Origin: Clostridia bacterium | GTDB taxonomy: Bacteria; Bacillota; Clostridia; UBA1381; UBA9506 | Assembly: GCA_045597205.1 (NCBI GenBank) | Contig: JAZODT010000073.1 | Span: 1-49,459, forward strand | DNA length: 49,459 bases | Direction: 5' to 3' | Shown: piece by piece, positions 5,000 to 45,423 of the stretch | How the letters are laid out: every line of letters starts with the position of its first letter | Numbering within the stretch: position 1 is the stretch's first letter | The notes under the pieces: model-generated | Told to the model about the DNA's origin: nothing | What the model saw: only the letters and a program-made list of their open reading frames with translations | The model's database searches: none | Made by a program: the position numbers and the translations under genes

Positions 5000-5522
5000 A
5001 ATGATGAATCAGTTTAAACAAACCAGACCGGTACTTACCTGGCTGTTTACAGCCATTTTAATCGTGTTAACCGCAACACTTCAAACTACGGTTATTCGTG
5101 GTCTTGAAGTGTTTCGTGTCATCCCCAATCTTTTGTTTATTGTTGTGGTTTCTTATGGCATTTTGCATGATGATTACAGTTCATTAATTGTGGGTGCTGT
5201 TTGTGGCTTAATTTTAGATGTGCTTGGTGGCCGGGTGGTGGGCATTAATACATTACTTTGTACTTATGTGGCATATTTATGCTTATTAATTAGTGATAAT
5301 TTGTTTAACAACAATGCCTTTGTTGCTATGGTTTTTGTTCTTCTTTTATCTATTCCTTATGAGGTATTAACCTATTTGTTTTACTTTGTTATTTGGGGCA
5401 AAGGTTCTTTGTGGTATGCTGTTTTTCACAAAATTTTACCCATCACCATTTATAATTTTCTTTTTACATTGCTCCTTTATCCCATTGTTAAAAAAGTCAC
5501 GGGGCAAACAGAAGTGTACTAG
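4992..5522 (+). CDS. mreD: Rod shape-determining protein MreD
   Basis: 176-aa polytopic membrane protein that overlaps the mreC stop; call is by conserved operon position. Confidence 0.7.
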   Translation: MDKMMNQFKQTRPVLTWLFTAILIVLTATLQTTVIRGLEVFRVIPNLLFIVVVSYGILHDDYSSLIVGAVCGLILDVLGGRVVGINTLLCTYVAYLCLLISDNLFNNNAFVAMVFVLLLSIPYEVLTYLFYFVIWGKGSLWYAVFHKILPITIYNFLFTLLLYPIVKKVTGQTEVY

Positions 5523-5584
5523 TAACGATTACTGTAATGGCAACGTTTTTACGCTGTTTTTTGTATCCTAAAGGGGGTCAGAAC

Positions 5585-7645
5585 ATGGAAAACCAACAAT
5601 TGAAAAAACGATGCACCATTCTCTATGTTCTGGTCGTATTGTTAGCCTTAGTTGCTGTGGGGCGGCTATTTTATTTGCAGATTATTGAAGGTGCGAACTA
5701 TCGGGCTATTTCGGATAGTCGTTTGGCAAGAAACATTCCTATCAAGGCTCCCCGCGGAGAAATATTAGACCGCTATGGTCGCGCTTTGGTAACCAATCGT
5801 GAGGGTTATACGGTTGCAATTGCGAAAATTAACGATGATAAACAAGCACTCAACCAAGTGATTTTAAATATGGCCAACCTTTTTTTAGAAAAAGGATTGG
5901 CCTATGAGGATTCTTTGCCCATCAGTAAAGAAGCGCCTTTTTCTTTTCAGTTTACAGGCAATGATGAAGAAGCACAGTTAAAAGCAAAGCAAACCTTTTT
6001 ATCTGATAAAAAATATCCGGCGGATATTACACCAGAGGGTGTTCTTCAAAAATATAAACAAAAATATGCCATGAGTGATGAATATTCCCTTGAAGAATTA
6101 CGTATGATCGCCGGTGTTCGTTATGAGATGGAAAAACGTAATTTTTCTTCTAACAATGCCTATGTTTTTGCACAGGATGTGGATATTGAAACCATTACCA
6201 CCATTAAAGAAAAACGGGAACAGTTTTTTTGTGTAACGGTGTATAGCGAACCGATTCGTCAGTATGCGGGCGGTTCTTTGGCGGCACACATTTTGGGTCG
6301 TGTAGGTATCATTAATCCCGAAGAGTATGCTGAGCTGAAAGACGAAAACTATGGCATGAATGATTATTTGGGCAAAGAAGGGGCCGAAAAGGCTTTTGAA
6401 AAATATTTAAAAGGAACAGATGGAACCAACAGTATTGAGAGAAAAATCCGTGAAGGCGAAACCGAGGTTGTTTATTCCCGTGACCCTGTACCGGGTAATT
6501 CTGTTATGCTTACCATTGATATGGACCTGCAATGGACAGCAGAAAAATCTTTACAGGATAACATTCAGCGAATTGCGGCCAATAGTGCCTATGGCAGTGG
6601 TCATGATGCCTGTGCCGGTGCAGCCGTTGCAGTAGATTTAAACACCGGTGAGGTGCTGGCGATTGCATCTTATCCTACTTATGATCCTGAGCGGTTCTAT
6701 GAAGATTATAATTCTCTTTTAAATAATCCCAACCGGCCAATGTTTAACCGAGCTTTAAACGGAATTTATGAACCTGGTTCAACCTTTAAATTGTGTACGG
6801 CGTTGGCGGCGCTTGAGACAGGTGTTGTTACACCGGCAGAACAAATGAAAACCACAGGCGTTTATAATTATTTAGGCCATGACTTTATGTGCCATATCTA
6901 TCGCAGTAGCGGTGGTAACCATGGCACCATTAACATTTCACAGGCCATTCAGTATTCTTGTAACCATTTCTTTTATGAAATGGGACGACGAACCGGCATT
7001 GAAACCATTGATGAATATGCAGCCAAGTTGGGCTTGGGAGAATATACCGGTATAGAACTGGCTGGTGAGGAAAAAGGGCAAATTGCCGGGCCGGAACTGC
7101 GTGAAAAAACCGGTCGTGAGTGGTATCCCGGTGACGTACTACAGGCGGCCATTGGTCAGTCGGACAATTTATTTACTCCCTTGCAAATGGCAAATTATGT
7201 TGCAACCCTTGCCAATGGCGGCACAAATTATGAATTGCATTTGCTCAAGGCAGTTAAATCGAATACAGATAATACAATTATTTATGAAAATGAACCCAAA
7301 GTTAAAAATACAATTTCGGTTAAAGAAGAAAATATAAAAGCTGTTTTAGCCGGCATGCAATTGGCAACGTCAGAAGGTACGGCCAGTGCGGCATTTGCCG
7401 ATTTTCCTTTTAAAACGGGAGGTAAAACCGGCAGCGCACAAGTGTCTCGTGGCTCCAGTAACGGCATTTATGTTGGCTATGCTCCTTATGATAATCCTCA
7501 GATTGCTGTGGCAGTGGTGATAGAACACGGCGGCGGTGGCGGCAATGCTTCTTATATAGCCAGAGATATTTTTTGGGAGTATTTCTTTGGTGGGACAGGC
7601 ACAGAGAAGGCATCGATCACGCCGGAGAATACATGGCTGCCCTAA
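5585..7645 (+). CDS. mrdA: Penicillin-binding protein 2 (elongation transpeptidase)
   Basis: TM anchor, RGEILDRYGR dimerisation region, and transpeptidase motifs STFK, SCN (SxN) and KTGS. ATG 5585 has the RBS AAAGGGGG and is preferred over 5537. Confidence 0.9.
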   Translation: MENQQLKKRCTILYVLVVLLALVAVGRLFYLQIIEGANYRAISDSRLARNIPIKAPRGEILDRYGRALVTNREGYTVAIAKINDDKQALNQVILNMANLFLEKGLAYEDSLPISKEAPFSFQFTGNDEEAQLKAKQTFLSDKKYPADITPEGVLQKYKQKYAMSDEYSLEELRMIAGVRYEMEKRNFSSNNAYVFAQDVDIETITTIKEKREQFFCVTVYSEPIRQYAGGSLAAHILGRVGIINPEEYAELKDENYGMNDYLGKEGAEKAFEKYLKGTDGTNSIERKIREGETEVVYSRDPVPGNSVMLTIDMDLQWTAEKSLQDNIQRIAANSAYGSGHDACAGAAVAVDLNTGEVLAIASYPTYDPERFYEDYNSLLNNPNRPMFNRALNGIYEPGSTFKLCTALAALETGVVTPAEQMKTTGVYNYLGHDFMCHIYRSSGGNHGTINISQAIQYSCNHFFYEMGRRTGIETIDEYAAKLGLGEYTGIELAGEEKGQIAGPELREKTGREWYPGDVLQAAIGQSDNLFTPLQMANYVATLANGGTNYELHLLKAVKSNTDNTIIYENEPKVKNTISVKEENIKAVLAGMQLATSEGTASAAFADFPFKTGGKTGSAQVSRGSSNGIYVGYAPYDNPQIAVAVVIEHGGGGGNASYIARDIFWEYFFGGTGTEKASITPENTWLP

Positions 7646-15503: not shown

Positions 15504-16667
15504 TTACCAACCGAAAGACAAATGTTCGTCAACTTCCTTTATTAAATTTTCAATATCATCCCCGGTTATGTGGGTATAGAAATCTATAGTTGTTTCGTAC
15601 TGCTCGTGTCCTACGATGCGCTGCAGATATTCTGGTTTAGAATCGTTTTTAACCATCTCAGAAATAAATGTATGACGGGTGGAATGCGGTGTTAAGCGAG
15701 GCGGTTTCGCGTTTTTCTCCAAAATCTTGATTTCTTCCAAAAAAGGATAAAAATACCTGTTTCTGAAATTATCAACATCCATCTTATTGCCGCGTTGGTT
15801 GCACAACAGGCATTTTCGGTTTTTGTTTTCTTCCATCCAAACGATTATGAACGGCAGAACATCTTTGTGTATAGGGATGATTCGCTCTTTGCCCGCATCG
15901 GTTTTAGAACCGCCGACCATGTATCGTTTATCTATATGAACGTTTTCAATTTCCATGGAAAATAACTCGTTGATTCTTACCCCAGTATATATCAGAACCA
16001 ATATAATTTGCGCTGTTCTATTGTCGCTATTCTTCCATAATAATGCAATTTCGTCTTTTTTAAATATCTCTTTTTCTTTATTTGTTTCTTCCGGCAGAAC
16101 AACAAACTGAGCATAGTCCTTATTGATAATATCGTCCTGCATAGCTTGCTTGCAGATTTTACTGGCGACAATCTTAATTTTCTTGCAGGTTGAAAGCCCC
16201 TTACCGCTTTCCCGGGCACTGTCGATAGCGGCTTGTATATGCTGGCTGGTAATCGATCTCATTTTAATCTGGCTGTAAGGCTCTAAATATAACCATGCGG
16301 CCCGGTATGAATTCTCTGTCGATTTGTCGATTTTCTTGTAATGCTTATCAGACCATGCGTCATAAACCTCTTTAATTGTTAGGTTATAACCATCCGGGAT
16401 CGGGCTGATTCTAGCGGCGTCCAGCGCATTTATAGCTTCCGTTCTGGTGGCATAATAGCCAATGATCGTCTTTGTCTGCTCAAAATTTACTGTTTTTGAG
16501 ATAGTGGCAACATACGGCCTACGGCGCCGGCCCGAAAGCTTGTATACTGTTCCGGTACCGTTAGCGCGTTTTAAGGCCTTTCTGGTTTCTTTTATTTGTT
16601 TTTTTCCGCAGTGTTGACAAAAAAGGCTGTCCTCTGCAATTTCCTTGTGACATTTTATGCATATCAT
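15504..16667 (-). CDS. int: Tyrosine-type site-specific integrase with N-terminal zinc ribbon
   Basis: CIKCHKEIAEDSLFCQHCGKK at the N-terminus; catalytic R (TGVRINEL), HSTRHTF and GHEQYETTIDFYTH (R-H-R-Y). Confidence 0.95.
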   Translation of the reverse strand: MICIKCHKEIAEDSLFCQHCGKKQIKETRKALKRANGTGTVYKLSGRRRRPYVATISKTVNFEQTKTIIGYYATRTEAINALDAARISPIPDGYNLTIKEVYDAWSDKHYKKIDKSTENSYRAAWLYLEPYSQIKMRSITSQHIQAAIDSARESGKGLSTCKKIKIVASKICKQAMQDDIINKDYAQFVVLPEETNKEKEIFKKDEIALLWKNSDNRTAQIILVLIYTGVRINELFSMEIENVHIDKRYMVGGSKTDAGKERIIPIHKDVLPFIIVWMEENKNRKCLLCNQRGNKMDVDNFRNRYFYPFLEEIKILEKNAKPPRLTPHSTRHTFISEMVKNDSKPEYLQRIVGHEQYETTIDFYTHITGDDIENLIKEVDEHLSFGW

Positions 16668-16808: not shown

Positions 16809-17535
16809 AATTCTCTTTTACATCAAAAATTTTTTCTTTTCTACCATTATCTGATATTTGAATTTGCGTGACTTGGAACTCTTTATTATATACGGCTAAT
16901 TTTAATATATAACAATTTTTATGATACCAAAAGACCAGGTCACCTTTTGCAACATTTCCAAATTTATCAAAATATAATTCAGCGGACGAGTTAGTGGTTG
17001 CCCCGAAACCGAGCAATAAGGAATACGGATATTTAGCCGTCTGTCCTGCAGGAGTTAAAGGATGGTGAAAAATTTTACAAACGACCCCTCCATAATTTAT
17101 TGATTCTTCAAAAGATAATAAGTTTGGGTCGTAGGTAAAGCGCGGAAAGTTTGTGTGGTCTTTGTTGAAATTTTCTAATGTGAGATTAAGATTTAATAAG
17201 AAGCAGTTTGCAACCTTTTCCTTGTCTTGCGGACTTGTTATATAATACACATCCGTTCCGGTGCCATTATTATTTTCGCAAGAGTAGCGAAAAGTCAAAT
17301 CGCTCAAAAGAAAGTGATAAAAAACATTGCTTTTCATAGACGGATGGTGTATAGCCTTATTCAACTTGCTTTCTTCATATTCGTTTGCCCAATCTTGATA
17401 TTCTTGAATGTATGGGTCGCAATTGGGGCGTCGCTTTAAAATGTCTTTTGTTTCCTGATTTTCCTGATTTTCAGTACTGTTTTTATATAATATAATCGCT
17501 AAGATAATAGCAACTACAACAATCAAAAACCACAC
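16807..17535 (-). CDS. Membrane-anchored hypothetical protein (lysogeny-module accessory gene)
   Basis: GTG start 9 nt after AAAGGAG; N-terminal TM helix (WFLIVVVAIILAIILY). It is visibly AT-rich compared with int and cI and lies 22 nt downstream of the repressor on the same strand. Confidence 0.6.
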   Translation of the reverse strand: MWFLIVVVAIILAIILYKNSTENQENQETKDILKRRPNCDPYIQEYQDWANEYEESKLNKAIHHPSMKSNVFYHFLLSDLTFRYSCENNNGTGTDVYYITSPQDKEKVANCFLLNLNLTLENFNKDHTNFPRFTYDPNLLSFEESINYGGVVCKIFHHPLTPAGQTAKYPYSLLLGFGATTNSSAELYFDKFGNVAKGDLVFWYHKNCYILKLAVYNKEFQVTQIQISDNGRKEKIFDVKEN

Positions 17536-17557
17536 GATGTCATTCTCCTTTATTGTC

Positions 17558-18208
17558 TTAATTTATTTCCCTTATTACCAATTTGGGTATGCCAAGGACA
17601 CGGCAATGTTCCAAAGCTTCATTTTCTATTGTTATGGGCGGGAAGTTGGGGTTTACCGGCACCAGCCGGAGCCAGTCTTCTCCGTTTACATATTCCACGC
17701 GTTTTAAGGTAGCGCAATCGTCTTCGTATATAATAGCACCGATTTGCCCGCTATAATTTAAGGTTGTTTGCTTTAAAATCAGCACTTTGTCCCCATCCTG
17801 ATAGGTGGGGTACATACTTTCTCCTTTAACCAACAAAACAAAAAATTCAGTTGGTTTTCGGCCACCTAAGTATGAATTAGGAATGTCTATCTTTTCCCCA
17901 TCCCAGTTTTCTACGGCAATGCGGTCATAGCCTGCTGCGATTTCGCCAATGACCGGAAATGTGGTATAGTCCTCTGTGATGCCAGGGGAGGGGAAACGTT
18001 CGTCTTCCTCTTCCCATCCCATCAGGTAGGCAGGAGTTGTATTTAACTTATCGGCAAGCAATTTAATTTTGCTTGCAGGTATATTAGAAATAATTCCGGT
18101 TTCGTATTTATGGATTGTTTGTTTAGTGGTTCCTGCAGCAAACGCCAACTCTTCCTGGGTTAATTCGTGGCGGATTCGCAGGAGCTTAATTTTTTCTCCT
18201 ATATTCAA
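17558..18208 (-). CDS. CI/LexA-like phage repressor (XRE HTH + S24 peptidase)
   Basis: HTH LTQEELAFAAGTTKQTIHKYETG; S24 Ser (GESMYPT) and Lys (ATLKRV); TTG start after GAGGTGAG. Confidence 0.9.
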   Translation of the reverse strand: MNIGEKIKLLRIRHELTQEELAFAAGTTKQTIHKYETGIISNIPASKIKLLADKLNTTPAYLMGWEEEDERFPSPGITEDYTTFPVIGEIAAGYDRIAVENWDGEKIDIPNSYLGGRKPTEFFVLLVKGESMYPTYQDGDKVLILKQTTLNYSGQIGAIIYEDDCATLKRVEYVNGEDWLRLVPVNPNFPPITIENEALEHCRVLGIPKLVIREIN

Positions 18209-18230
18209 TGAAACTCACCTCTTCACCAAC

Positions 18231-18259
18231 AGTATAGCAATAAAAAAGTCACTTGTCAA
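18231..18259 (-). promoter_or_regulatory. Leftward promoter for repressor (P_RM-like)
   Basis: The minus strand reads TTGACA (18259-18254), 17 nt, then TATACT (18236-18231). Confidence 0.6.
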
Positions 18260-18292
18260 GAAATTTTTTTCGTAATTTTATTAAAAAAGTGC

Positions 18293-18321
18293 TTGACAAG
18301 TTACAAAAACCGTGCTATGAT
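18293..18321 (+). promoter_or_regulatory. Rightward early promoter (P_R-like)
   Basis: TTGACA (18293-18298), 17 nt, then TATGAT (18316-18321), 36 nt upstream of the cro-like ATG. Confidence 0.65.
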
Positions 18322-18325
18322 GGTA

Positions 18326-18341
18326 GTAACTTAAAAGTTAC
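18326..18341. promoter_or_regulatory. Candidate operator, perfect 16-bp palindrome GTAACTTAAAAGTTAC
   Basis: Lies immediately downstream of the -10 of the rightward promoter. An identical copy is at 18556-18571. Confidence 0.5.
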
Positions 18342-18357
18342 GAGAAGAGGTGAAGTT

Positions 18358-18564
18358 ATGCTTGACATCAAAGCTTTGCGTGCAGAGATGGCGCGAAATG
18401 GTTATACTCAAACGGCGCTGGCAAAGGAAATCGGAGTATCTGACAGAACTTTTGGAACCCGCTTAAAGACAGGGGATTTTGGTGTAAAAGAAATCGAAAT
18501 TATGATAGAAGTTTTGCACCTTAAGGATCCATTAGCCATTTTTTTTGCTCAAGAAGTAACTTAA
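18358..18564 (+). CDS. Cro-like HTH regulator
   Basis: 68 aa from ATG 18358 (RBS GAGGTGAAG); HTH YTQTALAKEIGVSDRTFGTRLK; divergent from the repressor. Confidence 0.75.
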   Translation: MLDIKALRAEMARNGYTQTALAKEIGVSDRTFGTRLKTGDFGVKEIEIMIEVLHLKDPLAIFFAQEVT

Positions 18565-18571
18565 AAGTTAC
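18556..18571. promoter_or_regulatory. Second copy of the 16-bp palindrome GTAACTTAAAAGTTAC
   Basis: Exact repeat (17 nt shared, AGTAACTTAAAAGTTAC) that overlaps the cro-like stop codon. Confidence 0.45.
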
Positions 18572-18615
18572 AAACAGAGAGAGGAAGAGAAAAGAGAGGA
18601 AGGAGGGGAGTAGCC

Positions 18616-18840
18616 ATGCTTGAAGCAGAACTGATGACAGCAGCAGAAGCAGCCAGAATTTTAGGAACCACACCACTGAAAATATCCAAAGCCATTCATG
18701 ACGGCGTTCTTCCTATTGGCGTAGTGGTAGAAGCAGAGCCGGGAAAAAACGAGAGAAACCGAACCATTATTATTAAAAAACGGCTTGAGCGCTGGCTGAA
18801 CGGTGAGGATCTTAAGCTGGTAGCGGGCAATGAAGACTAG
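18616..18840 (+). CDS. Excisionase/HTH_17-like DNA-binding protein
   Basis: 74 aa; LMTAAEAARILGTTPLKISKAIHDGVLP resembles excisionase/MerR-type winged HTH domains. Confidence 0.55.
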   Translation: MLEAELMTAAEAARILGTTPLKISKAIHDGVLPIGVVVEAEPGKNERNRTIIIKKRLERWLNGEDLKLVAGNED

Positions 18841-18855
18841 AGGAAGGAGAAAACC

Positions 18856-18987
18856 ATGTCAGACAAGGAAAAGCGGGATAAGCTAATTCAGATTCTTCGG
18901 GATTGGGCACTGAAGGCAAACGATGGCATTTCGTTTGAAAGCATAGCGGAGCATTTACTTGTAAACGGCGTGGAAGTGCCAGATTAA
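18856..18987 (+). CDS. Small hypothetical protein (43 aa)
   Basis: ATG is 6 nt after AGGAAGGAGAAAA. It reads MSDKEKRDKLIQILRDWALKANDGISFESIAEHLLVNGVEVPD, is below the ORF-track cutoff, and fits tightly between its neighbours. Confidence 0.35.
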   Translation: MSDKEKRDKLIQILRDWALKANDGISFESIAEHLLVNGVEVPD

Positions 18988-19007
18988 ACTTCAAGGGAGG
19001 AAAACAA

Positions 19008-19277
19008 ATGAAAAGACGGATTCAGATAGCGGCAGCATTGTGTCTTCTGGTGATTGTGGTTGTGTTGCTCTTGGGTTTGGCCACAAAGTCAACGGAAAAA
19101 GAGTGGACCACATACACCGTCCGTCCCGGGGACAAGCTTTGGGATATAGCGGAGGAGCTGGAGGTTCAGAACTGGGACAAATGGCGCTATGAGACCTGCC
19201 AGGTGAACAACATCCAGCAGGGTGGTTTAATATTTCCCGGCCAAGAGCTAGTCGTTTATGTGTCATCACAAAAATAG
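19008..19277 (+). CDS. Membrane-anchored LysM domain protein
   Basis: TM helix (IAAALCLLVIVVVLLLGL) followed by the LysM motif YTVRPGDKLWDIAEEL...GGLIFPGQELVV. Confidence 0.8.
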   Translation: MKRRIQIAAALCLLVIVVVLLLGLATKSTEKEWTTYTVRPGDKLWDIAEELEVQNWDKWRYETCQVNNIQQGGLIFPGQELVVYVSSQK

Positions 19278-19398
19278 GGCTCCCGCAAAACCCGATAGGT
19301 TTTGTGGGAAAGAGGAAGAACCGCCCGTCAAGCGTAGCGCCGGAGAATATACGGCGCAAGATACAAGGGCGTGTTCTGACGAGAGGGAGGTGAGATAA

Positions 19399-19676
19399 AT
19401 GTTTAAATCCATTACGTACGATCAGCCGATTAGGAAAAGAATCCGGCCGAACAAGTACCAGGCAGAAATTGAGGCTGTTCACGAGTTTAATTCCTCGAAG
19501 CATACCAATATGCTTATGGAATATGATTCGGGGGGGGCGCTAGGAATGCCTATTGTTTTATGAAACGGTATTTGGCAGATGCCAAGATGCCTTTGGAGGC
19601 AAAAGTCAGAAATACGGTTTTTGTGGTTATTGAACGAAAGAAAATTAACGAAAGCGAGGAAAAGATTAATGATTAA
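19399..19676 (+). CDS. Hypothetical early protein interrupted at a G8 tract
   Basis: The frame runs from ATG 19399 (RBS GGGAGG) and stops at 19563. The -1 frame continues smoothly from the G8 run (19530-19537) to TAA 19676, whose ATGATTAA junction overlaps the next start codon. Confidence 0.4.
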
Positions 19677-19892
19677 ACTTGAAACAAAAGAAGCTGAAGG
19701 ATACTCCCTGGAAATGCGGGGGGGGTATTAGAGCTCTTGGCCGAACTTGGATCTGCGGTCACTGGAGCTCTTAATAGGATGACTGATAACGAAAAGGATT
19801 TTAGAAAACTAAAGGACATGTTAATTTCTGCACTTATTAACTGTGCGGAATTTTGTCCAAAACCAAAGGAGGAAAACAATGGGAATGAGTAA
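19669..19892 (+). CDS. Hypothetical early protein interrupted at a G8 tract
   Basis: ATG 19669 gives only 20 codons (stop at 19731). After the G8 run (19718-19725) the -1 frame reads VLELLAELGSAVTGALNRMTDNEKDFRKLKDMLISALINCAEF... and ends at 19892. Confidence 0.4.
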
Positions 19893-20523
19893 AGAAGAAT
19901 TTACCCGGCAGTTTATGGCCGACCAGACTAAAAAGCGAACCGGGGGGGGTATCGAAAAACCCTTTACAAAGTGGACGCGTGAGTTGACCTCGGATTTGTA
20001 CCGGCTTTATGAGCAGAAGCTTTCTGCAGAAGAAATTGCCGAACGGCTTGGAGTTGATGTTAAGGCCGTAAAAAACAAACTGAGGAATGATAAACAACGT
20101 GCCAAGCAGGCCCAAAAGAAAAGACAACAGCCTGCGCCGGTGCAGGAGACGAAAAAGGGCGTGGACGAGCAGTACATAGAGCATTTGGAGGGAGAGTTTG
20201 CTAAGTGTAAACTGGAACTGAATGATGCGAACGAATTGAACCGCCAGCTTGCTGAAGAGGTTGCGAAGCTTAACAGTCGTTTAAAAGGTTATGTAGAGCA
20301 AATTGACGTTGAGCGTGATAGCAAGTTTCAGGATTTGTTTTTCGAAGCAGAATGTTTGGTTGATTGCATTAGAGGGATTAATACGGACGAAATGAAAGAG
20401 CCTGCCAATACACATATTTTATTTGATTTGTTGGATTCTAAATTAGATGCAATCTACAGGCAAGTGCCGAGAGTGAAAAAAGAAGACTCCGAAACTGCTG
20501 GAACAGCTCCGGAGCCCAAATGA
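19879..20523 (+). CDS. Hypothetical early protein with HTH-like segment and coiled coil
   Basis: ATG is 6 nt after AGGAGG. LSAEEIAERLGVDVKAVKNKLRN resembles sigma region-4/HTH. It contains an in-frame G8 run (19942-19949). Confidence 0.65.
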   Translation: MGMSKEEFTRQFMADQTKKRTGGGIEKPFTKWTRELTSDLYRLYEQKLSAEEIAERLGVDVKAVKNKLRNDKQRAKQAQKKRQQPAPVQETKKGVDEQYIEHLEGEFAKCKLELNDANELNRQLAEEVAKLNSRLKGYVEQIDVERDSKFQDLFFEAECLVDCIRGINTDEMKEPANTHILFDLLDSKLDAIYRQVPRVKKEDSETAGTAPEPK

Positions 20524-20547
20524 AAAATTTAATAACGATGTGCCTTC

Positions 20548-20576
20548 ATTGTAACATAGAGAGGGCGATTTGTCAA
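20548..20576 (-). promoter_or_regulatory. Leftward (antisense) sigma-A-like promoter
   Basis: The minus strand reads TTGACA (20576-20571), 17 nt, then TACAAT (20553-20548). It points into the 3' end of the 19879-20523 gene. Confidence 0.4.
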
Positions 20577-20667
20577 GAGGGGATGGATATGGAATCCCCT
20601 CGCCACTTCGTGGCCCTCTCCCCTTTAGACAAGGGGCGCCGAAGCACATAGAAAGGAGTTTGTCAAG

Positions 20668-20859
20668 ATGAGATACAGAGAATGCTCAGTGTGCGGCCAG
20701 TCGCTAGACCCGGCTGAAATTTGCGATTGCCGCCGGCATGAACAGACGGACGAAACCTATGATGGTGCGACACAAGATACAAGAAAGTTTATACTTAAAG
20801 TAGGTTCAGATGTCTTTCGGATGGATACGGAAGGGAGGCTATACTGTTGTTCGAGATAA
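20668..20859 (+). CDS. Small Cys-rich hypothetical protein
   Basis: 63 aa; CSVCGQSLDPAEICDC is zinc-ribbon-like; RBS AAAGGAG lies upstream. Confidence 0.5.
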   Translation: MRYRECSVCGQSLDPAEICDCRRHEQTDETYDGATQDTRKFILKVGSDVFRMDTEGRLYCCSR

Positions 20860-20972
20860 CAGACAAAAATATAGATGATTTTTATGGTGAATGTGAACGT
20901 CCAAAACGGTGGTCCATGAGCTGGCCGTATCAGGATGAGGAACTGGATGATTTTGAGGAGGATGATGCGTAA
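20847..20972 (+). CDS. Small acidic hypothetical protein (41 aa, TTG start)
   Basis: GGGAGG lies 8 nt upstream of the TTG, and the stop overlaps the next ATG (TAATG). It ends in DEELDDFEEDDA. Not in the ORF track. Confidence 0.3.
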   Translation: MFEITDKNIDDFYGECERPKRWSMSWPYQDEELDDFEEDDA

Positions 20973-22087
20973 TGGCGATGTCAGTATACCGTCAATTAGT
21001 CACCGGCCAGGCAGAATGTTTGCAGGCGATTAAAAACGAAATCGGCATGAAGACGAACTGTATGCCTTTCGCTATTAAGCTGATGACAGCATTATCTGAC
21101 CTTGCACCCAAAACCGTCCAGGAGGAATTATATGCCGCCAATGTTCTGCTTGCAGGTCTGCAGACCTTAATGCAGGGCGGAATTATAGCAGAAGACTATG
21201 ACAAAATCGATTTTGTCAAGCGGGGAAAGGCTGTTGTTGCATCTGCAAGAGTAGAGGCCTTTCTCCGGGCTTCGGCCCGAAAGGGGTACCGTATTACCGA
21301 TACGATCGTAGCGGTACCGCGAGAAGACTATGAGACAACATTTTTTAAGGAAAATTTCTTTAATGGAGATATCGTGTACACATTAGAGGACCGGCGCATT
21401 AATGCGGACAGGGCTGTTACTGCTAAGCGCCTGGCGGACAGATATTTTGAAAAGTTTATCTGCAGATTGGACATTCACGAAGTGCAGAGCGGTAAGCGCG
21501 TGGCCATGACGGTTTGCGAAATGTCTATTGATGAGCTGTTGGCTATTGCGTCCGCCAGTGAACAGGGTCTTTTCAAATCCCATTGGGAAGAATATGAAAC
21601 CAAGTGGGGCACTAAGAAAAGGAAAGTCATCACAGATAAACTGAACGAGGACACCTTCTGGGTGAAATGGGCCGGTGAAATGGTCAACAAAACCATTATC
21701 AGAAGAGCCTTAAAGCGCGTGAAAGAGGTTCTGCCGGAGCTGACCGATTCAATTTATGCCTTCGAGCAGGATGAATACATAGAAGATGAGGTTAAGAAGG
21801 AAACTGTGGCCATTGATGTTCCTGTGGAGTATGTGGATGAGGATGATGTTAATCTGCATCAGCTGACAAAGGAACAGCAGGCAGAATGCACGGAGCTTTA
21901 TGAACTTTATAAAGCAAATCCTAAATTGGCTGAGGATAAGTTTGCCGAGATTATGGGGCTGATTGAAGAAGGCTATGCACCGCAGGATATCATCAACAAA
22001 GAATATGCCGGTTTAGTGGTTTTAAAGCGCTCAAAGGCAAAATGGGACAAGATTGGAGGGTATTTTGATGAAAAGAACAAAACTTAA
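20972..22087 (+). CDS. RecT-like single-strand annealing recombinase
   Basis: EAFLRASARKGYRITDTIVAV and MVNKTIIRRALKRV resemble conserved RecT segments. It is paired with a downstream YqaJ-type exonuclease. Confidence 0.6.
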   Translation: MAMSVYRQLVTGQAECLQAIKNEIGMKTNCMPFAIKLMTALSDLAPKTVQEELYAANVLLAGLQTLMQGGIIAEDYDKIDFVKRGKAVVASARVEAFLRASARKGYRITDTIVAVPREDYETTFFKENFFNGDIVYTLEDRRINADRAVTAKRLADRYFEKFICRLDIHEVQSGKRVAMTVCEMSIDELLAIASASEQGLFKSHWEEYETKWGTKKRKVITDKLNEDTFWVKWAGEMVNKTIIRRALKRVKEVLPELTDSIYAFEQDEYIEDEVKKETVAIDVPVEYVDEDDVNLHQLTKEQQAECTELYELYKANPKLAEDKFAEIMGLIEEGYAPQDIINKEYAGLVVLKRSKAKWDKIGGYFDEKNKT

Positions 22088-23108
22088 GCAAGGTACCCTT
22101 GATTGGGAACGAGCCAGAGAGACCCGCATTGGCAGCAGTGAAGTGTTTGACATTGTAAAGTACTATGCCACAGATAACGAACTGCAGTATTGCGGTTTTA
22201 ACCCGGAAGCCTTTCGGGCAGAGAAACCTTATACCACCGTGTGGGCACTTTACCACAAAATGTTGGGTGATGGCTTCTATAAAAGAGAGGCTTTACCCCC
22301 AGAGTTTTCAGAATACGGACACGCCGTAGAACCATACGGCGTGCGTGCTCTGCAGAAAGGCCGGCAGAAGAAGCTCAAGCCGGGGCCGGTATATGCCAAT
22401 GACAGGCTGATTGCGAGTTTAGACATCGAAGGCATTGCTGAGGCGGTGGATGTGGTGCCCTTCCATTATGGGAAGGGTACACCGAAAATAGGGCAGCGGT
22501 TTGTGTGTGAGCAGAAATCTATGCTGCCCGCCGTTGTGAAAAACGGCCTGCCGTTTAAATATATCCTGCAGGCACAGTATCAGCTTATGCAGACGAAAGC
22601 AGACTTTTTTATCCTGCAGCTGATGGTATTAAAGGATGACACGGTGTTTAACCGGGGAAAGATATGCCAGATGTCAAACAGGTCGCGGTATACCTATTTA
22701 GAAGACAAAGTGATTGTGTCCCATTATTATTTTCAGAGCAACGAACATTTATCAAAACTCATTGAAAAATGCCTTGGTTTGTTTTTTAAGGACGTGGATA
22801 ACAGAAAAGAGCCTACACCGTTTATAGAGTATGACAGCGCGAAAAATATTATTGAAAGCATCCGGCTGAACGCTTTATACAACGACAAGATGACACTTCC
22901 TTTTGATTTGGCAGCGTATCGGCAGGCCAAGGAAGAAGAGGAACAGGCTATTAATCGGCGGAAAGCAATTCTGCAGAGTATTGTGGAGCTTGCCAAAGAA
23001 AGCAACGCCTGCCGGTTTCGTTCAGAGGACGGTACAACGGCAGCCTTTGCAAAGGACGGCAGCTTCAGGATGAGACTTCCGGCAGAGGAGGTGGCGGTAT
23101 GCAATTAA
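22068..23108 (+). CDS. YqaJ-like (lambda Exo-type) recombination exonuclease
   Basis: N-terminus KQGTLDWERARETRIGSSEV is typical of the YqaJ family. ATG 22068 lies 7 nt after GGAGGG. Confidence 0.7.
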   Translation: MKRTKLKQGTLDWERARETRIGSSEVFDIVKYYATDNELQYCGFNPEAFRAEKPYTTVWALYHKMLGDGFYKREALPPEFSEYGHAVEPYGVRALQKGRQKKLKPGPVYANDRLIASLDIEGIAEAVDVVPFHYGKGTPKIGQRFVCEQKSMLPAVVKNGLPFKYILQAQYQLMQTKADFFILQLMVLKDDTVFNRGKICQMSNRSRYTYLEDKVIVSHYYFQSNEHLSKLIEKCLGLFFKDVDNRKEPTPFIEYDSAKNIIESIRLNALYNDKMTLPFDLAAYRQAKEEEEQAINRRKAILQSIVELAKESNACRFRSEDGTTAAFAKDGSFRMRLPAEEVAVCN

Positions 23109-26932: not shown

Positions 26933-27613
26933 TTGAAAAACAGTTTAATTTTATATCATGCTTATTCAGAACACTTTGAGCTTTTAACTGATGAAGAGTT
27001 AGGGCAACTCCTTCGTGCGATAATGCTTTATGATGAGCAGGGCATTATTACAGAACTTGAAGGCATGGCGAAGATGGCATTTTCTTTTATTAAAAAAGAT
27101 TTAGATATTTCTCGGGAAAAGTATGCGGCTAAATGTGAAAAGAACCGGGAGAACGGCGAAAAAGGCGGTCGAGGTAATAAAAAGGAAATTGAAGAACAAA
27201 GCGAACGCAAAAACGAAGAAAGCGAAAAAAGCGAACGCTTTTCCGAAAAACCCAAAAAAGCCGATAATGATAATGATAATGAAAATAATAATGAGCATGA
27301 TAATGATAATGTAAAGCGTAAACGCTTTAAGGCGCCTGCTCTTTCGGAAGTGCAGGCCTACTGTGCCGAGCGTAAAAACAATGTTGACCCTGAGCGGTTT
27401 ATGGCCTATTATACATCCAATGGCTGGAAGGTAGGGAAGAATCCTATGAAGGATTGGAAGGCAGCGGTAAGAAGCTGGGAAAAGAACGAGCTTGACATAG
27501 GCAGCTCGGCAGGGCAGAGAGCGGCACCGGCAAAACCGTCCAGGCATGACTATGAGGAGCTGCAGCGTAAAGCGTTTATGAATTTGAACAGCGGAGGGAT
27601 AAAGGATGATTAA
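26933..27613 (+). CDS. Replisome-organizer-like phage protein with conserved phage C-terminal domain
   Basis: The C-terminus VQAYCAERKNNVDPERFMAYYTSNGWKVGKNPMKDWKAAVRSWEKN matches the conserved phage C-terminal motif seen in replication-module proteins. A central D/N/E low-complexity linker is present. TTG start after GGAGGGGG. Confidence 0.5.
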   Translation: MKNSLILYHAYSEHFELLTDEELGQLLRAIMLYDEQGIITELEGMAKMAFSFIKKDLDISREKYAAKCEKNRENGEKGGRGNKKEIEEQSERKNEESEKSERFSEKPKKADNDNDNENNNEHDNDNVKRKRFKAPALSEVQAYCAERKNNVDPERFMAYYTSNGWKVGKNPMKDWKAAVRSWEKNELDIGSSAGQRAAPAKPSRHDYEELQRKAFMNLNSGGIKDD

Positions 27614-41658: not shown

Positions 41659-44600
41659 GTGATTAAGGTGGACGGTGATACCAAGCCGTTAGAAAAGTCG
41701 TTAGGGAAAATCGGCAGCGTTGCTCAAAAGGGGTTAGGCGTAACCGTTAAAGGTATTGCTGCCATCAGTACCGGTTTTGCGGCAGCTACCGGTGCAGCTT
41801 TAAAATTCAGAGGTGAGTTGGAGCAAAACTTAGGCGGTTCCAAAGCAGTTTTCAAAGAGTTTGCCGATGATATTCAGGAAAATGCAGAAAGAGCCTTTAG
41901 CAAGGCGGGGCTTTCAGCATCTAATTACTTGGCCACAGCCAACAAAATGGGCGCACTGTTCCAGGGCGCAGGATTTACCATAAAGGAATCAGCGGATTTG
42001 ACAACGCAGGCAATGCAAAGAGCAGCAGACGTTGCTTCTATTATGGGTATCGAAACCAGCTGGGCTATGGAATCCATCGCCGGTGCGGCCAAGGGCAATT
42101 TTACCATGATGGATAATTTAGGCGTTGCTATGAATGAAACCACGCTGAATGCATATGCACTGGAAAAGGGCATTGGGAAAACGACGTCTCAGATGACCAA
42201 TCAGGAAAAGATTGGCCTAGCTATGGAGTTGTTTTTAGAAAGAACAGCCTATGCTGCCGGCAACTATGCCAAGGAAAACGAAACCCTGGCCGGCTCCTTA
42301 GGTACCGCCAAGGCATCGCTTGAAAACTTTATGGCCGGTGCCGGTAATGTGGATGATGTTGTTGATTCTATTTTAAATGCCGGCAAAGTGATTGCAAAAA
42401 ATATTAAGGAGTTACTTCCGGAGCTGGGCCAGGGTCTTTCCGAAGGTCTGCGTCAAATTTTGGCCGAGGTTCCCGGATTCATTGACGATAACGCAGAGGA
42501 ATTTGCACAAGGCGCGGCCGATTTGGTCGTGGTGCTGGTAAATGCTATCATAGACGGCGCACCGGAGATGGCGGAGGCTGCCTCTAAGCTTTTGGTGGTG
42601 TTTGCAGACGAGCTAGGGGAAGCTGTGCCTATTTTAAAACCAGTAACAGAGGTTATCAGTTTTTTAGGCGAAAATTTAGAGACAACTGCAAAGGTGGCTA
42701 TAGCGACAGGTGTAGCCTTTGAGACCTATACGATAACAGCAGGGGCAGCGAAAGCCGCAACGGTTGCGTATGCCACGGCTAAGCAGACGCTTGCTACCCA
42801 CGAGGCGGCGCACCGTTTAACACTGCTTGCCTCTAACGGCGCGTTGACAGCCCAGGAACTGTTAGTGGGGGTGCTCACGGGAAAAATCCCTTTGCTGATA
42901 GCGGCTAAAGGGCTTGCGACTAAAGCGCAGATAGCGCTGAATGCGGCCTGGACGGCCAATCCTGTTGGTATCGTTGTTGCGGTCGTGGCAGCACTGGCCG
43001 TCGGCTTGGGCGTTTTATATGCAGCGACCAGGAAACAAACTGAAGCCGAGCAGGAACAAGCGGCAAGACTGAAAGAGGTTACAGAAAAAACAAAGGAGCT
43101 GACGGAGGCTTCTAAAGAGCAGGAGGCGGCTTATCTCTCAAGCATTGATTCAATTAACAAGTCAACAAGTGCAGAGCTGGCAGAGCTTTCTTGTGTAGAA
43201 AGTCTGGCAGATGAGCTGTTCACATTGGCAGATGAATCCGGCCGTGTGGATGAAGCAAACCGCGCCAGAGCGTCCTTTATCCTCGGGGAATTAAACGAGG
43301 CTATGGGCACAGAGTATACGCTGACAGGCAATCAAATCAGTAAATACGGCGAATTGAAGACCTCTATTTATGATACTATTGACGCTATGCAGGCGAAAAT
43401 TGTGTTAGCAGCCTATGAAGATATGTTGACGGAGGCTATTAAGCGGCAAGCAGAAGCTCAAAAAAACGCAACAGGAGCGTATACTGCGTTAACGGAAGCA
43501 GAGCAGTCGCAAGATGCTGCTATTTCTGCTTTTATATCAAAATACGAACAGCTACATGGTGTTACGCTTGATGCGGTGGCGGCGGAGGAACAACTGAAAA
43601 AAGGCAAAGCGCAGAATGGTGCGTTGCTCTGGGGGATTATAGACGATTATAATGAAGCCAGTGCAGCTATTGCAAGCAACACCGCCCTGATAGAGGAAAG
43701 CGGGCAAGCATCACAAGAAGTTGCAGAGCTCAGAGCGGCAGTTTCCTCTGCTACAACGGCCATAGAACTTGGCAATTTTGAAGAGGTTGTTAATGGCTAT
43801 CAAATGAGCGAGGATGCTAAAAAAGCTATTGCATCCGGCAGTGAAGCAGAAATTCTTGCTACAATTGTTAAGAAAAATGCTGAAATTGAAGACCTGGAGG
43901 CGCGGAAAAACGCAGCTACTACAGAAGAGGAGAAAAAAGGTTGGCAAGCTCTGATTGATGCAGCAGCCAAAGATGGCGCCAACCTGGTGGCCGAATACGA
44001 AAAGACAGGAAAAAATGCTACAGAAGGCCTGGCGCAACATTTCCGAGATGGTGGCACCGCCATTGAAGCCGCCAAAACATTAGCGCAGAATATTATTAAT
44101 AAAATTAAGGGTGTGTTTGACGAACATTCTCCTTCCCGGGTTATGCGCTATGACGTGGCAGGCAACGCAACAAAAGGGATTGTACTCGGTTTTAAGGATG
44201 GCGAAAAAGAGGTTTATGCCGCTGCGGAAAAGCTGGCGGAAAAGGGCATAGATGGCTACAACGCCGGCCAGGAAGCAAATTCGCCGGCCAAGGAATATAT
44301 TAAAGCCTCTAAAAATAGTATTGACGGTTTGATTAAAGGCATCGATGACAATGCGGACCGTTTGATGGACCGGATGGAGGAGCTGAGTGACGAGGCGCTA
44401 ACGGCTGAAATAACCGGCAATGATGCTTTATTGGATGCAGAACGCAAATACCTTTCTGAAAGCCGGCGGATGGAGCGGGAAAAGGAAGAAAAGGAATACA
44501 AGGAAAAACTGGCTGCTGCCAAAACAGCTGAGGCAGCTCAAAAAATTAAAAATGAACGGTTGCAAAAACTGCAGGAGGAAGCGGATGAGCGTTATCTCGA

Positions 44601-45423
44601 TCAGCTTCGAGAAACTGCAGAGGCTGAACGTGAATCGGTAGAAGAACGGAAAAACAAAATCATTGATACGTTTCAGGATGCGGCCGATGCGGCTATGGAT
44701 GCTGTTGAAGATCTGGCAGACAGACAAGAGAGTTTTCGAGAAAAGCTTCTTGGCGATGTGAAACTGTTCAAAAAAGTAACCTTTAAAGGTGCCGGCGAGG
44801 ACGGAACAGACTTGCAGTTTACCGATTTGGCGGATTTGGATAAACAAAGCCGGGCGTTAGAGGAGTATGCCGATTTGCTTCTTAAGGTGCGGGACCGCGA
44901 GGAGCTGCCTAATGGCTTTTTTGATGAGCTTCGGGAAATGTCCATCGAAGAGGGAACAGCTTTCGCTAAAACGCTTCTGGACGCTGATGACGATACTTTT
45001 GCAAGGTATATACAATCGTGGAATGATATCCAAAATACAGGCGACCGGCTGGCTAAAGAGGTATTCGGCGAAGATACAGAGGAGTTAAAGGGAAAATTTG
45101 AAGAGGAGTTAAAGCGAAAATTTGAAGAGGAGTTCGGTCAGCTGCCGGAGGACTTCTTTAAACTGGGCGAGGATAGCATTCAGCAATTCGGCAGCGGCTT
45201 TATGAGTAAACTGCAGGAGCTTATGCGGAATGTTAAGCAAGAAATTGAGAGAAGTCTTTCTTATCTTTCTCCGGTACCGATAGCGGGAGCGGTTGCCGGC
45301 AGTGCGGGAACCGGCAACACAAGCTTTCATACGGTGTATAATTTTTCATCCTCCGGGGAGACGGTGCATCAGCAGTTGCAGACGGCGCGTGACGCTGATA
45401 CCGTGAAGCAACTCAGAGGATAA
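41659..45423 (+). CDS. Tape measure protein
   Basis: 1254 aa. Central hydrophobic segment, long Ala/Glu-rich helices, and position after the chaperones. Confidence 0.9.
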   Translation: MIKVDGDTKPLEKSLGKIGSVAQKGLGVTVKGIAAISTGFAAATGAALKFRGELEQNLGGSKAVFKEFADDIQENAERAFSKAGLSASNYLATANKMGALFQGAGFTIKESADLTTQAMQRAADVASIMGIETSWAMESIAGAAKGNFTMMDNLGVAMNETTLNAYALEKGIGKTTSQMTNQEKIGLAMELFLERTAYAAGNYAKENETLAGSLGTAKASLENFMAGAGNVDDVVDSILNAGKVIAKNIKELLPELGQGLSEGLRQILAEVPGFIDDNAEEFAQGAADLVVVLVNAIIDGAPEMAEAASKLLVVFADELGEAVPILKPVTEVISFLGENLETTAKVAIATGVAFETYTITAGAAKAATVAYATAKQTLATHEAAHRLTLLASNGALTAQELLVGVLTGKIPLLIAAKGLATKAQIALNAAWTANPVGIVVAVVAALAVGLGVLYAATRKQTEAEQEQAARLKEVTEKTKELTEASKEQEAAYLSSIDSINKSTSAELAELSCVESLADELFTLADESGRVDEANRARASFILGELNEAMGTEYTLTGNQISKYGELKTSIYDTIDAMQAKIVLAAYEDMLTEAIKRQAEAQKNATGAYTALTEAEQSQDAAISAFISKYEQLHGVTLDAVAAEEQLKKGKAQNGALLWGIIDDYNEASAAIASNTALIEESGQASQEVAELRAAVSSATTAIELGNFEEVVNGYQMSEDAKKAIASGSEAEILATIVKKNAEIEDLEARKNAATTEEEKKGWQALIDAAAKDGANLVAEYEKTGKNATEGLAQHFRDGGTAIEAAKTLAQNIINKIKGVFDEHSPSRVMRYDVAGNATKGIVLGFKDGEKEVYAAAEKLAEKGIDGYNAGQEANSPAKEYIKASKNSIDGLIKGIDDNADRLMDRMEELSDEALTAEITGNDALLDAERKYLSESRRMEREKEEKEYKEKLAAAKTAEAAQKIKNERLQKLQEEADERYLDQLRETAEAERESVEERKNKIIDTFQDAADAAMDAVEDLADRQESFREKLLGDVKLFKKVTFKGAGEDGTDLQFTDLADLDKQSRALEEYADLLLKVRDREELPNGFFDELREMSIEEGTAFAKTLLDADDDTFARYIQSWNDIQNTGDRLAKEVFGEDTEELKGKFEEELKRKFEEEFGQLPEDFFKLGEDSIQQFGSGFMSKLQELMRNVKQEIERSLSYLSPVPIAGAVAGSAGTGNTSFHTVYNFSSSGETVHQQLQTARDADTVKQLRG

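Follow-up and report, generated by a model that had tools for sequence, protein, structure and literature searches.

Clade-conserved poly-G tracts in three consecutive early genes of a Clostridia prophage as candidate slippage-prone ON/OFF switches

Why do three consecutive small genes of one prophage each contain an uninterrupted run of eight guanines (G8), two of which break the reading frame? The question is raised by a stretch of 49,459 nt (the window) from a Clostridia bacterium, which is the complete contig JAZODT010000073.1 of the NCBI assembly GCA_045597205.1 and comprises a part of the host chromosome and a prophage. The G8 runs are located at 19530-19537 (tract 1), 19718-19725 (tract 2) and 19942-19949 (tract 3) on the plus strand, all inside 420 nt, in genes referred to here as genes 1, 2 and 3. 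A sequence-only reading of this DNA had placed the runs at these positions, had noticed no other G or C run longer than 6 nt, and had named programmed -1 frameshifting (or slippage during transcription), a phase-variable switch and sequencing error as possible explanations. The positions were borne out by our sequence check, and a run-length census of the window gave three G8, zero G7 and three G6 runs with a longest C run of at most 5 nt, leaving the G8 runs as the only G/C runs above 6 nt. The sharing of CGGGGGGGGTAT by the second and third runs was recovered by a repeat search as well (family D6). Among the explanations offered, the phase-variable switch is favoured here over sequencing error and both stay live, whereas conserved programmed -1 frameshifting is not supported.

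The tracts are non-random. In 100 dinucleotide shuffles of the window, a null that ignores codon structure, G8 matches averaged 1.49 and numbered at least three in 21 shuffles, which is unimpressive alone. Under the real decay of run lengths, however, an analytic calculation gave about 0.1-0.3 expected runs of at least 8 nt and a Poisson probability of ~1e-4 to 4e-3 for three or more, and three uniformly placed points fall within 420 nt with a probability of ~2e-4. Given the encoded peptide and the codon usage of the contig, a run of at least 8 nt has a probability of 0.015 in gene 1, 0.005 in gene 2 and 0.015 in gene 3. GGG is the rarest glycine codon of the contig (12.4%), and among the 63 Gly-Gly pairs in 31 long open reading frames (ORFs) a single one is written GGG-GGG, which is tract 3 itself. 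Because the tracts use this rarest codon, the homopolymer itself appears to be maintained. All three tracts lie in the first half of their ORF, at loop or linker positions, a placement shared with known contingency genes.

Gene 1 (19399-19676, plus strand) is split at tract 1, whose G8 is one G short of the frame. As the sequence-only reading had it, the zero frame ends at a TGA eight codons past the run, counted from its last all-G codon (a 54-aa ORF, 19399-19563), and the -1 frame continues to a TAA at 19674-19676. One added G restores a 92-aa protein, the close homologues of which (P0001-P0003, 79-88% identity) are each encoded by a single ORF of 88-92 aa. A profile search against 1.84 billion representatives returned 49 family members, nearly all of them full-length at 74-89 aa; the exceptions are the window's own 38-aa fragment and one member of 123 aa. 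AlphaFold2 modeling of the joined 92-aa sequence, with 29 family members as the alignment, gave a predicted local distance difference test (pLDDT) score of 86.9, exceeding 94 at residues 21-80, and predicted a helix (21-32), a strand (37-41), a second helix (45-61) and two further strands (66-71 and 75-80). In this model tract 1 encodes residues 42-44, which form the loop that joins strand 37-41 to helix 45-61, and the sheet needs both sides of the tract because strand 37-41 is encoded before it and strands 66-80 after it. The intact homologues and the predicted fold across the junction indicate that the joined frame is the real gene 1 protein. Neither searches of Pfam, NCBIfam and a PDB sequence profile nor Foldseek searches against PDB and BFVD returned anything significant for gene 1, the only hit being a weak one to phrog_25485, a family of unknown function. 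In the public annotation gene 1 is recorded as two proteins of 54 aa and 38 aa. A 440-aa transporter (P0009) that clustered with the 54-aa fragment is unrelated to it, the grouping being a clustering artefact.

To compare the tracts across relatives, ten short contigs (L001-L010) were used, which amount to about five independent, mutually related lineages. Public runs carrying relatives are SRR32129108, SRR31077521, ERZ28653904, ERZ27297704, ERZ28633522, ERZ28654221 and ERZ28653803. Tract 1 is G9 and in frame (tcG GGG GGG GGy) in L001-L005, which are metagenome contigs from five samples with three distinct gene 1 sequences. L003 and the window have identical flanks around tract 1, so their difference (G9 versus G8) is a clean single G. 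The homologue in L010, with 56% protein identity, has an in-frame G8 (ccG GGG GGG Gca) in the same loop but in another codon register (CAG CCG GGG GGG GCA, versus TCG GGG GGG GGC), its position being one codon away from that in the others. Gene 1 is thus ON, that is, in frame, in six of seven contigs (L001-L005 and L010) and off in the window. Around the tract, 29 of 49 degenerate, amino-acid-conserved codons vary synonymously; codons 38-46 (the 27 nt up to the tract end, tract included) are invariant, and all four codons after the tract vary. In distant family members the corresponding loop has no Gly-Gly and its residues are variable (consensus xxxEA), and hence the homopolymer is not dictated by the protein. 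These comparisons indicate that tract 1 is a clade-specific feature, kept though the protein does not require it. The sequence-only reading had held that homologues lacking any G tract would argue against a programmed role; in the close clade, the homologous prophages do carry the tract. Further relatives of gene 1 were not found in genome, viral or metagenome contig collections, and neither blastn of window positions 18200-22200 against phage records nor tblastn with the repaired gene 1 and gene 2 proteins gave a match.

Gene 2 (19669-19892, plus strand) begins with an ATG at 19669-19671 that is preceded by a GAGG ribosome-binding site and, as had been noted before, overlaps the -1 stop of gene 1 in the junction AATGATTAA. 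Its zero frame reads TAT and then stops at TAG (19729-19731), one codon past tract 2, and its -1 frame continues to 19892, both as described in the sequence-only reading. Tract 2 needs one additional nucleotide to restore the frame, and the version with G9 encodes 74 aa. In L001 and L002 the site is T + G6, from which one nucleotide would have to be removed or two added. Gene 2 is therefore out of frame in both lineages that carry its DNA, by different offsets. Compared with L001, the downstream frame has a ratio of nonsynonymous to synonymous substitution (dN/dS) of 0.20 at a dS of 1.15, and the other two frames have values above 1. The eight codons directly after the tract (ELLAELGS) differ by five synonymous and zero replacement changes. 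An internal start for the downstream frame was ruled out, since the only nearby start codon in that frame, TTG at 19737 in the window, is TTA in L001. Because the changes in ELLAELGS are synonymous only and this TTG is not kept, the frame must be entered from ATG 19669, at or before the tract. These data indicate that the downstream frame of gene 2 is under purifying selection and, together with the single-ORF homologues and the pLDDT of gene 1, support the earlier suggestion that the shifted frames are the real ones. The homologue search returned no called homologue of gene 2, exact look-ups of its repaired, truncated and internally started forms found none in ~15 billion proteins, the public record has no protein covering it (as a 50-aa or 51-aa ORF or in the repaired form), and database searches gave no functional assignment. 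Small proteins of this kind are lost from databases because annotation pipelines split such genes, as with the two fragments of gene 1 and the uncalled gene 2.

Two structural observations concern tract 2. In the RNA of window positions 19700-19729, the tract can pair with the upstream AUACUCCCU to form a hairpin of 9-10 bp (81-nt fold, z -2.5), whose upstream arm L001 does not share. The segments 19238-19249 and 19732-19743, at the end of the gene for a small LysM protein and just past tract 2, form a perfect inverted repeat of 12 nt, CGGCCAAGAGCT / AGCTCTTGGCCG; its arms are 482 nt apart, and by chance ~0.1 such pairs are expected in 1.8 kb.

Gene 3 (19879-20523, plus strand) is intact and encodes 214 aa with a helix-turn-helix (sigma-70 region 4-like) domain and a coiled-coil-like tail. 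Its run had been read as in frame, and indeed tract 3 is ACC GGG GGG GGT followed by ATC, in a variable N-terminal linker. Among the relatives the tract is G8 in L001, L002 and L008, G7 in L003, G5 in L006 and G3 in L007, in frame in every one, and gene 3 is thus ON in all seven contigs seen and appears to be a core regulator. The length follows the lineage, with G7-G8 where gene 1 with G9 is present and G5 in L006, which is without gene 1. A conserved junction between modules, AATGGGAATGAGTAA (window 19878-19892; L003 ~1494-1507), lies where gene 3 starts. The gene preceding gene 3, which is gene 2 in the window and L001 and gene 1 in L003, ends with …NGNE* and overlaps the gene 3 start, a pattern that suggests recombination between early-gene modules here. 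A 35-nt degenerate pattern built from the gene 3 start had zero matches in genome, viral and metagenome contig collections.

We propose that the three G8 runs represent poly-G tracts prone to slippage, which a phage clade may keep in three consecutive early lytic genes, in an operon lying downstream of a CI/Cro-type switch and upstream of the genes for RecT, an exonuclease and a helicase. Slippage of DNA polymerase would alter the length of a tract by at least one G and thereby restore or break the frame of its gene; the intact products are those of 92 aa for gene 1 (G9), 74 aa for gene 2 (G9) and 214 aa for gene 3 (G8). The state of this prophage would then be gene 1 OFF, gene 2 OFF and gene 3 ON. 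Since the operon is transcribed divergently from the CI-like repressor gene, it is presumably repressed in the lysogen, so that OFF states would be free of cost during dormancy; they could build up without penalty and revert at the same high rate. At the sequence level, the tracts share the features by which contingency loci are recognized. Each is a mononucleotide tract of at least ~7 nt inside an ORF, and lengths differ while flanks are unchanged (G8/G9 at tract 1, G8/G6 at tract 2 and G8/G7/G5/G3 at tract 3). Length toggles an intact, selected frame, as judged from the homologues, the predicted fold and the dN/dS of gene 2. The tracts are also kept beyond what protein and codon usage need, a comparison whose power is limited by the small number of lineages. 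The proposal further implies that the G8 calls are true and that switching is frequent, reversible and useful to the phage as bet-hedging on accessory early proteins, which we infer from the above. That these are true hypermutable ON/OFF tracts is, in our judgment, evenly balanced between right and wrong.

Several points weigh against this proposal. Both breaks show the one-G-short pattern that a homopolymer undercall gives, and the G8 lengths are known from the assembly alone. The behaviour that defines a contingency locus is reversible length heterogeneity arising at a high rate inside one population, and no such heterogeneity was seen; tract lengths are identical across samples (L001 = L002, L004 = L005), which shows only stable majority alleles. 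With gene 3 ON in every contig and gene 1 in all but one, the tracts look more like tolerated ones than like freely switching ones, and gene 2 has never been seen ON, its evidence coming from two lineages only. Caution is also due because gene 3, ON in every contig seen, still tolerates a G8, an observation as compatible with a tract valued in its own right as with a switch. For genes 1 and 2, whose function searches gave no assignment, a benefit from switching cannot be specified. Moreover, the statistics of conservation are weak because only about five lineages are available and these are related.

The undercall pattern leads to the possibility that tracts 1 and 2 are really G9 in this prophage and all three genes intact, in which case the tracts would still be a real and conserved oddity of the clade. 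Long G/C homopolymers are a classic site of length miscalls, and both breaks are cured by exactly one G, giving the G9 found in every close relative of gene 1, including L003 with its identical flanks. Nevertheless, the contig has about 25 A/T runs of 7-8 nt inside long ORFs, none of which loses its frame (its homopolymers include A8 at 462 and 37742 and T8 at 18539), no other homopolymer of at least 7 nt breaks a gene in it, and the scanned host and phage proteins match Pfam/PHROG families, mostly over the whole profile. Tract 3 agrees at G8 with three independent contigs. L001 and L002, two short-read contigs that stem from different runs, have gene 2 out of frame too, and therefore out-of-frame states at these tracts do occur elsewhere. 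We consider a miscall somewhat unlikely but a serious contender. Less probable still is that a role at the nucleic acid level or a lineage-specific mutational bias keeps the G runs, the two breaks being ordinary inactivating mutations in a dormant prophage. Such a role could be that of a protein-binding or pausing site, or of a cluster of Gs that lies on the non-template strand in front of the replication genes and is prone to R-loops. It would explain why gene 3 is ON in all seven contigs despite a mutation-prone G8, a cost that asks for a compensating benefit, and it accords with the lineage-bound length of tract 3 and with the synonymous invariance of the 27 nt ending with tract 1. In L009 the RecT homologue is broken by a frameshift, which suggests that prophage decay occurs in the group. 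On the other hand, the tracts share no motif beyond the run and, mostly, a preceding C, and no iterons or significant repeats were found around them. An Rfam scan of 17000-22000 identified no family (a single EBER2 match was at chance level), and the one-codon shift of tract 1 in L010 would not be expected of a binding site that is fixed in place.

Recoding on a fixed template is the remaining alternative, in which slippage of RNA polymerase on G8 or -1 slippage of the ribosome on G GGG GGG yields some full-length gene 1 and gene 2 product and sets the ratio of short to long forms. A -1 slip of two tRNA-Gly on tcG GGG GGG would produce exactly the SGGGA of the relatives. The coding frame of gene 2 is selected, yet out of frame in both lineages and never intact, and tracts of 8-9 nt have the RNA-DNA hybrid length at which transcriptional slippage is possible, a length rule known from A/T tracts such as those of Thermus dnaX and insertion sequence (IS) elements. 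The predicted trans-frame stretches of genes 1 and 2 are …EYDSGGGARNAY… and …EMRGGVLELL…, respectively, and the predicted trans-frame peptides are EYDSGGGAR and EMRGGVLELLAELGSAVTGALNR. The sequence-only reading had called G GGG GGG a formal X XXY YYZ slippery heptamer. It is indeed slippery in form alone, Y being A or U by the usual definition. The 0/-1 two-frame layout of gene 1 is confined to this contig, the gene being in frame in six related contigs of five lineages, and gene 2 would need a -1 shift in the window but a +1 shift in L001/L002. The alternative-frame tails are unlike between lineages and stop within nine codons. Folding of the 80 nt after tracts 1, 2 and 3 gave z-scores of -1.0, -1.9 and +0.3, with no significant structure after tracts 1 and 3, and the hairpin that follows tract 2 (z -1.9 to -2.5) has a 3' arm that lacks complementarity in L001; these folds and the comparison with L001 thus revealed no conserved downstream stimulatory structure. 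For bacterial RNA polymerase, the documented cases of slippage are mostly at A/T runs in a template whose out-of-frame state is conserved. For gene 1, by contrast, the template is out of frame at G8 in the window and in frame at G9 in the relatives. For gene 2 it is out of frame in both lineages with differing offsets, and the G6 of L001 is too short for transcriptional slippage. Programmed -1 ribosomal frameshifting as a conserved mechanism is accordingly not supported by the sequence comparison, and recoding of either kind appears improbable.

The proposed ON/OFF tracts can be compared with several known systems. Campylobacter (Fletchervirus) phages reportedly have hypermutable poly-G tracts, a finding attributed to Sorensen et al. 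in 2021 (Cell Rep 35:109214). These tracts, for which PMC12823448 cites that study, constitute a phage precedent. The likeness lies in the presence of poly-G in phage coding genes with several tracts per genome, length change in those phages shifting the frame and leading to ON and OFF subpopulations. The Campylobacter-phage tracts, however, are in virulent myoviruses of a host that is itself phase-variable through poly-G and affect receptor-binding or structural genes, whereas here a temperate Clostridia prophage has them in three adjacent small early genes beside its lysis-lysogeny switch, known from sequence alone. In bacteria, poly-G/poly-C contingency tracts of at least 7 nt are found in Campylobacter jejuni, Neisseria and Haemophilus (PMC4965091, PMC8355987). 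As in these loci, the G runs studied here are intragenic, at least 7 nt long, placed toward the 5' part of the ORF and kept against codon preference. The bacterial loci undergo reversible frameshifts by slipped-strand mispairing, mostly concern surface structures or restriction-modification enzymes and are scattered on the chromosome. In the window, in contrast, the host part (1 to ~15,300) is without such a tract, and all three tracts sit inside 420 nt of the prophage. The resemblance to programmed -1 frameshifting in dnaX and the phage tail chaperone G/GT consists in a -1 change at a formally slippery run and a real trans-frame protein; those cases differ in having a conserved two-frame layout, a conserved stimulator and A/U at Y. 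Likewise, Thermus dnaX (A9), the A/T runs of IS elements and Shigella mxiE/spa13 have a homopolymer of hybrid length in an ORF that needs a frame change, but they are A/T runs in a conserved out-of-frame layout, unlike the G runs here, which are in frame in most homologues. The tracts are probably contingency loci of a known type that differ from the others in setting and targets.

Phase variation driven by homopolymers is well known in a few bacterial pathogens, and to our knowledge it has so far been documented in phages for the receptor-binding genes of Campylobacter phages. If the tracts switch, contingency loci would be present in temperate phages of gut Firmicutes as well, and such loci could adjoin the lysis-lysogeny switch and diversify the genes first expressed upon induction or infection. 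A further-reaching idea is that a temperate gut-Clostridia phage uses the three tracts as a cassette to diversify its infection programme, with each induced or infecting genome expressing a different subset of early accessory proteins, e.g. anti-defence factors that can also trigger abortive infection. This idea seems to us rather doubtful; were it true, phase variation encoded by phages, known for receptor-binding genes in Campylobacter phages, would also reach the early genes of prophages in Firmicutes. Should the breaks be miscalls, the observation shrinks to an unusual, harmless choice of codons.

Positions 1 to ~15,300 of the window are ordinary Firmicute chromosome with intact genes for a U32 peptidase, Maf, MreB, PBP2, LigA and TyrRS, and the prophage begins at an integrase gene (15504-16667, minus strand). 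A gene for a CI/LexA-like repressor with HTH_3 and Peptidase_S24 domains (17558-18208, minus strand) is divergent from the early operon that contains genes 1-3. Between them lies a divergent pair of promoter-like sites, one at 18231-18259 on the minus strand and the other at 18293-18321 on the plus strand. The latter, TTGACA-17-TATGAT, matches the consensus at 11 of 12 positions, a consensus match only, and points toward a cro-like gene and genes 1-3. The order after the promoters is the Cro-like gene, an Xis-like helix-turn-helix gene, the small LysM protein gene and then genes 1-3, which are followed by genes for RecT, a RecE-like exonuclease, a helicase, SSB and RusA and by structural genes. 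The annotation of one relative of the RecT protein gives a 'Clostridia bacterium' MAG as its source.

Several minor features were observed in the relatives and in the rest of the prophage. The RecT homologue of L009 is broken into ORFs of 178 aa and 193 aa by a change from TTTT to TTT (window 21445-21448; L009 ~770), an unrelated frameshift at a short run that may stem from decay of the prophage or from misassembly of that metagenome. A conserved element of ~130 nt, …ATGGAGTAAGGCTTTGTGCCGAG..GCGACAGCAGAAAGCGCTTAATCCAG.CGTTCTTTCAGCAGGG…, is present in related phages between their early genes, with copies in L004 (655-815), L005 (709-867) and L006 (two copies, 5040-5200 and 5530-5690). It is not present in the window and has no match in Rfam; a small RNA and a site where recombination joined modules are both conceivable. 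Within the ORF 26933-27613 of the window, which has a weak match to PHROG primosomal-protein families, the hexanucleotide GATAAT is repeated 8.2 times (27263-27311). The repeat stays in frame because its unit length is a multiple of three, and it could represent origin iterons or an Asp-Asn repeat. In addition, a 24-nt tandem repeat (2.4 copies, 96% matches) is located at 45078-45134, near the 3' end of a 1254-aa ORF (41659-45423) that probably encodes the tape-measure protein.

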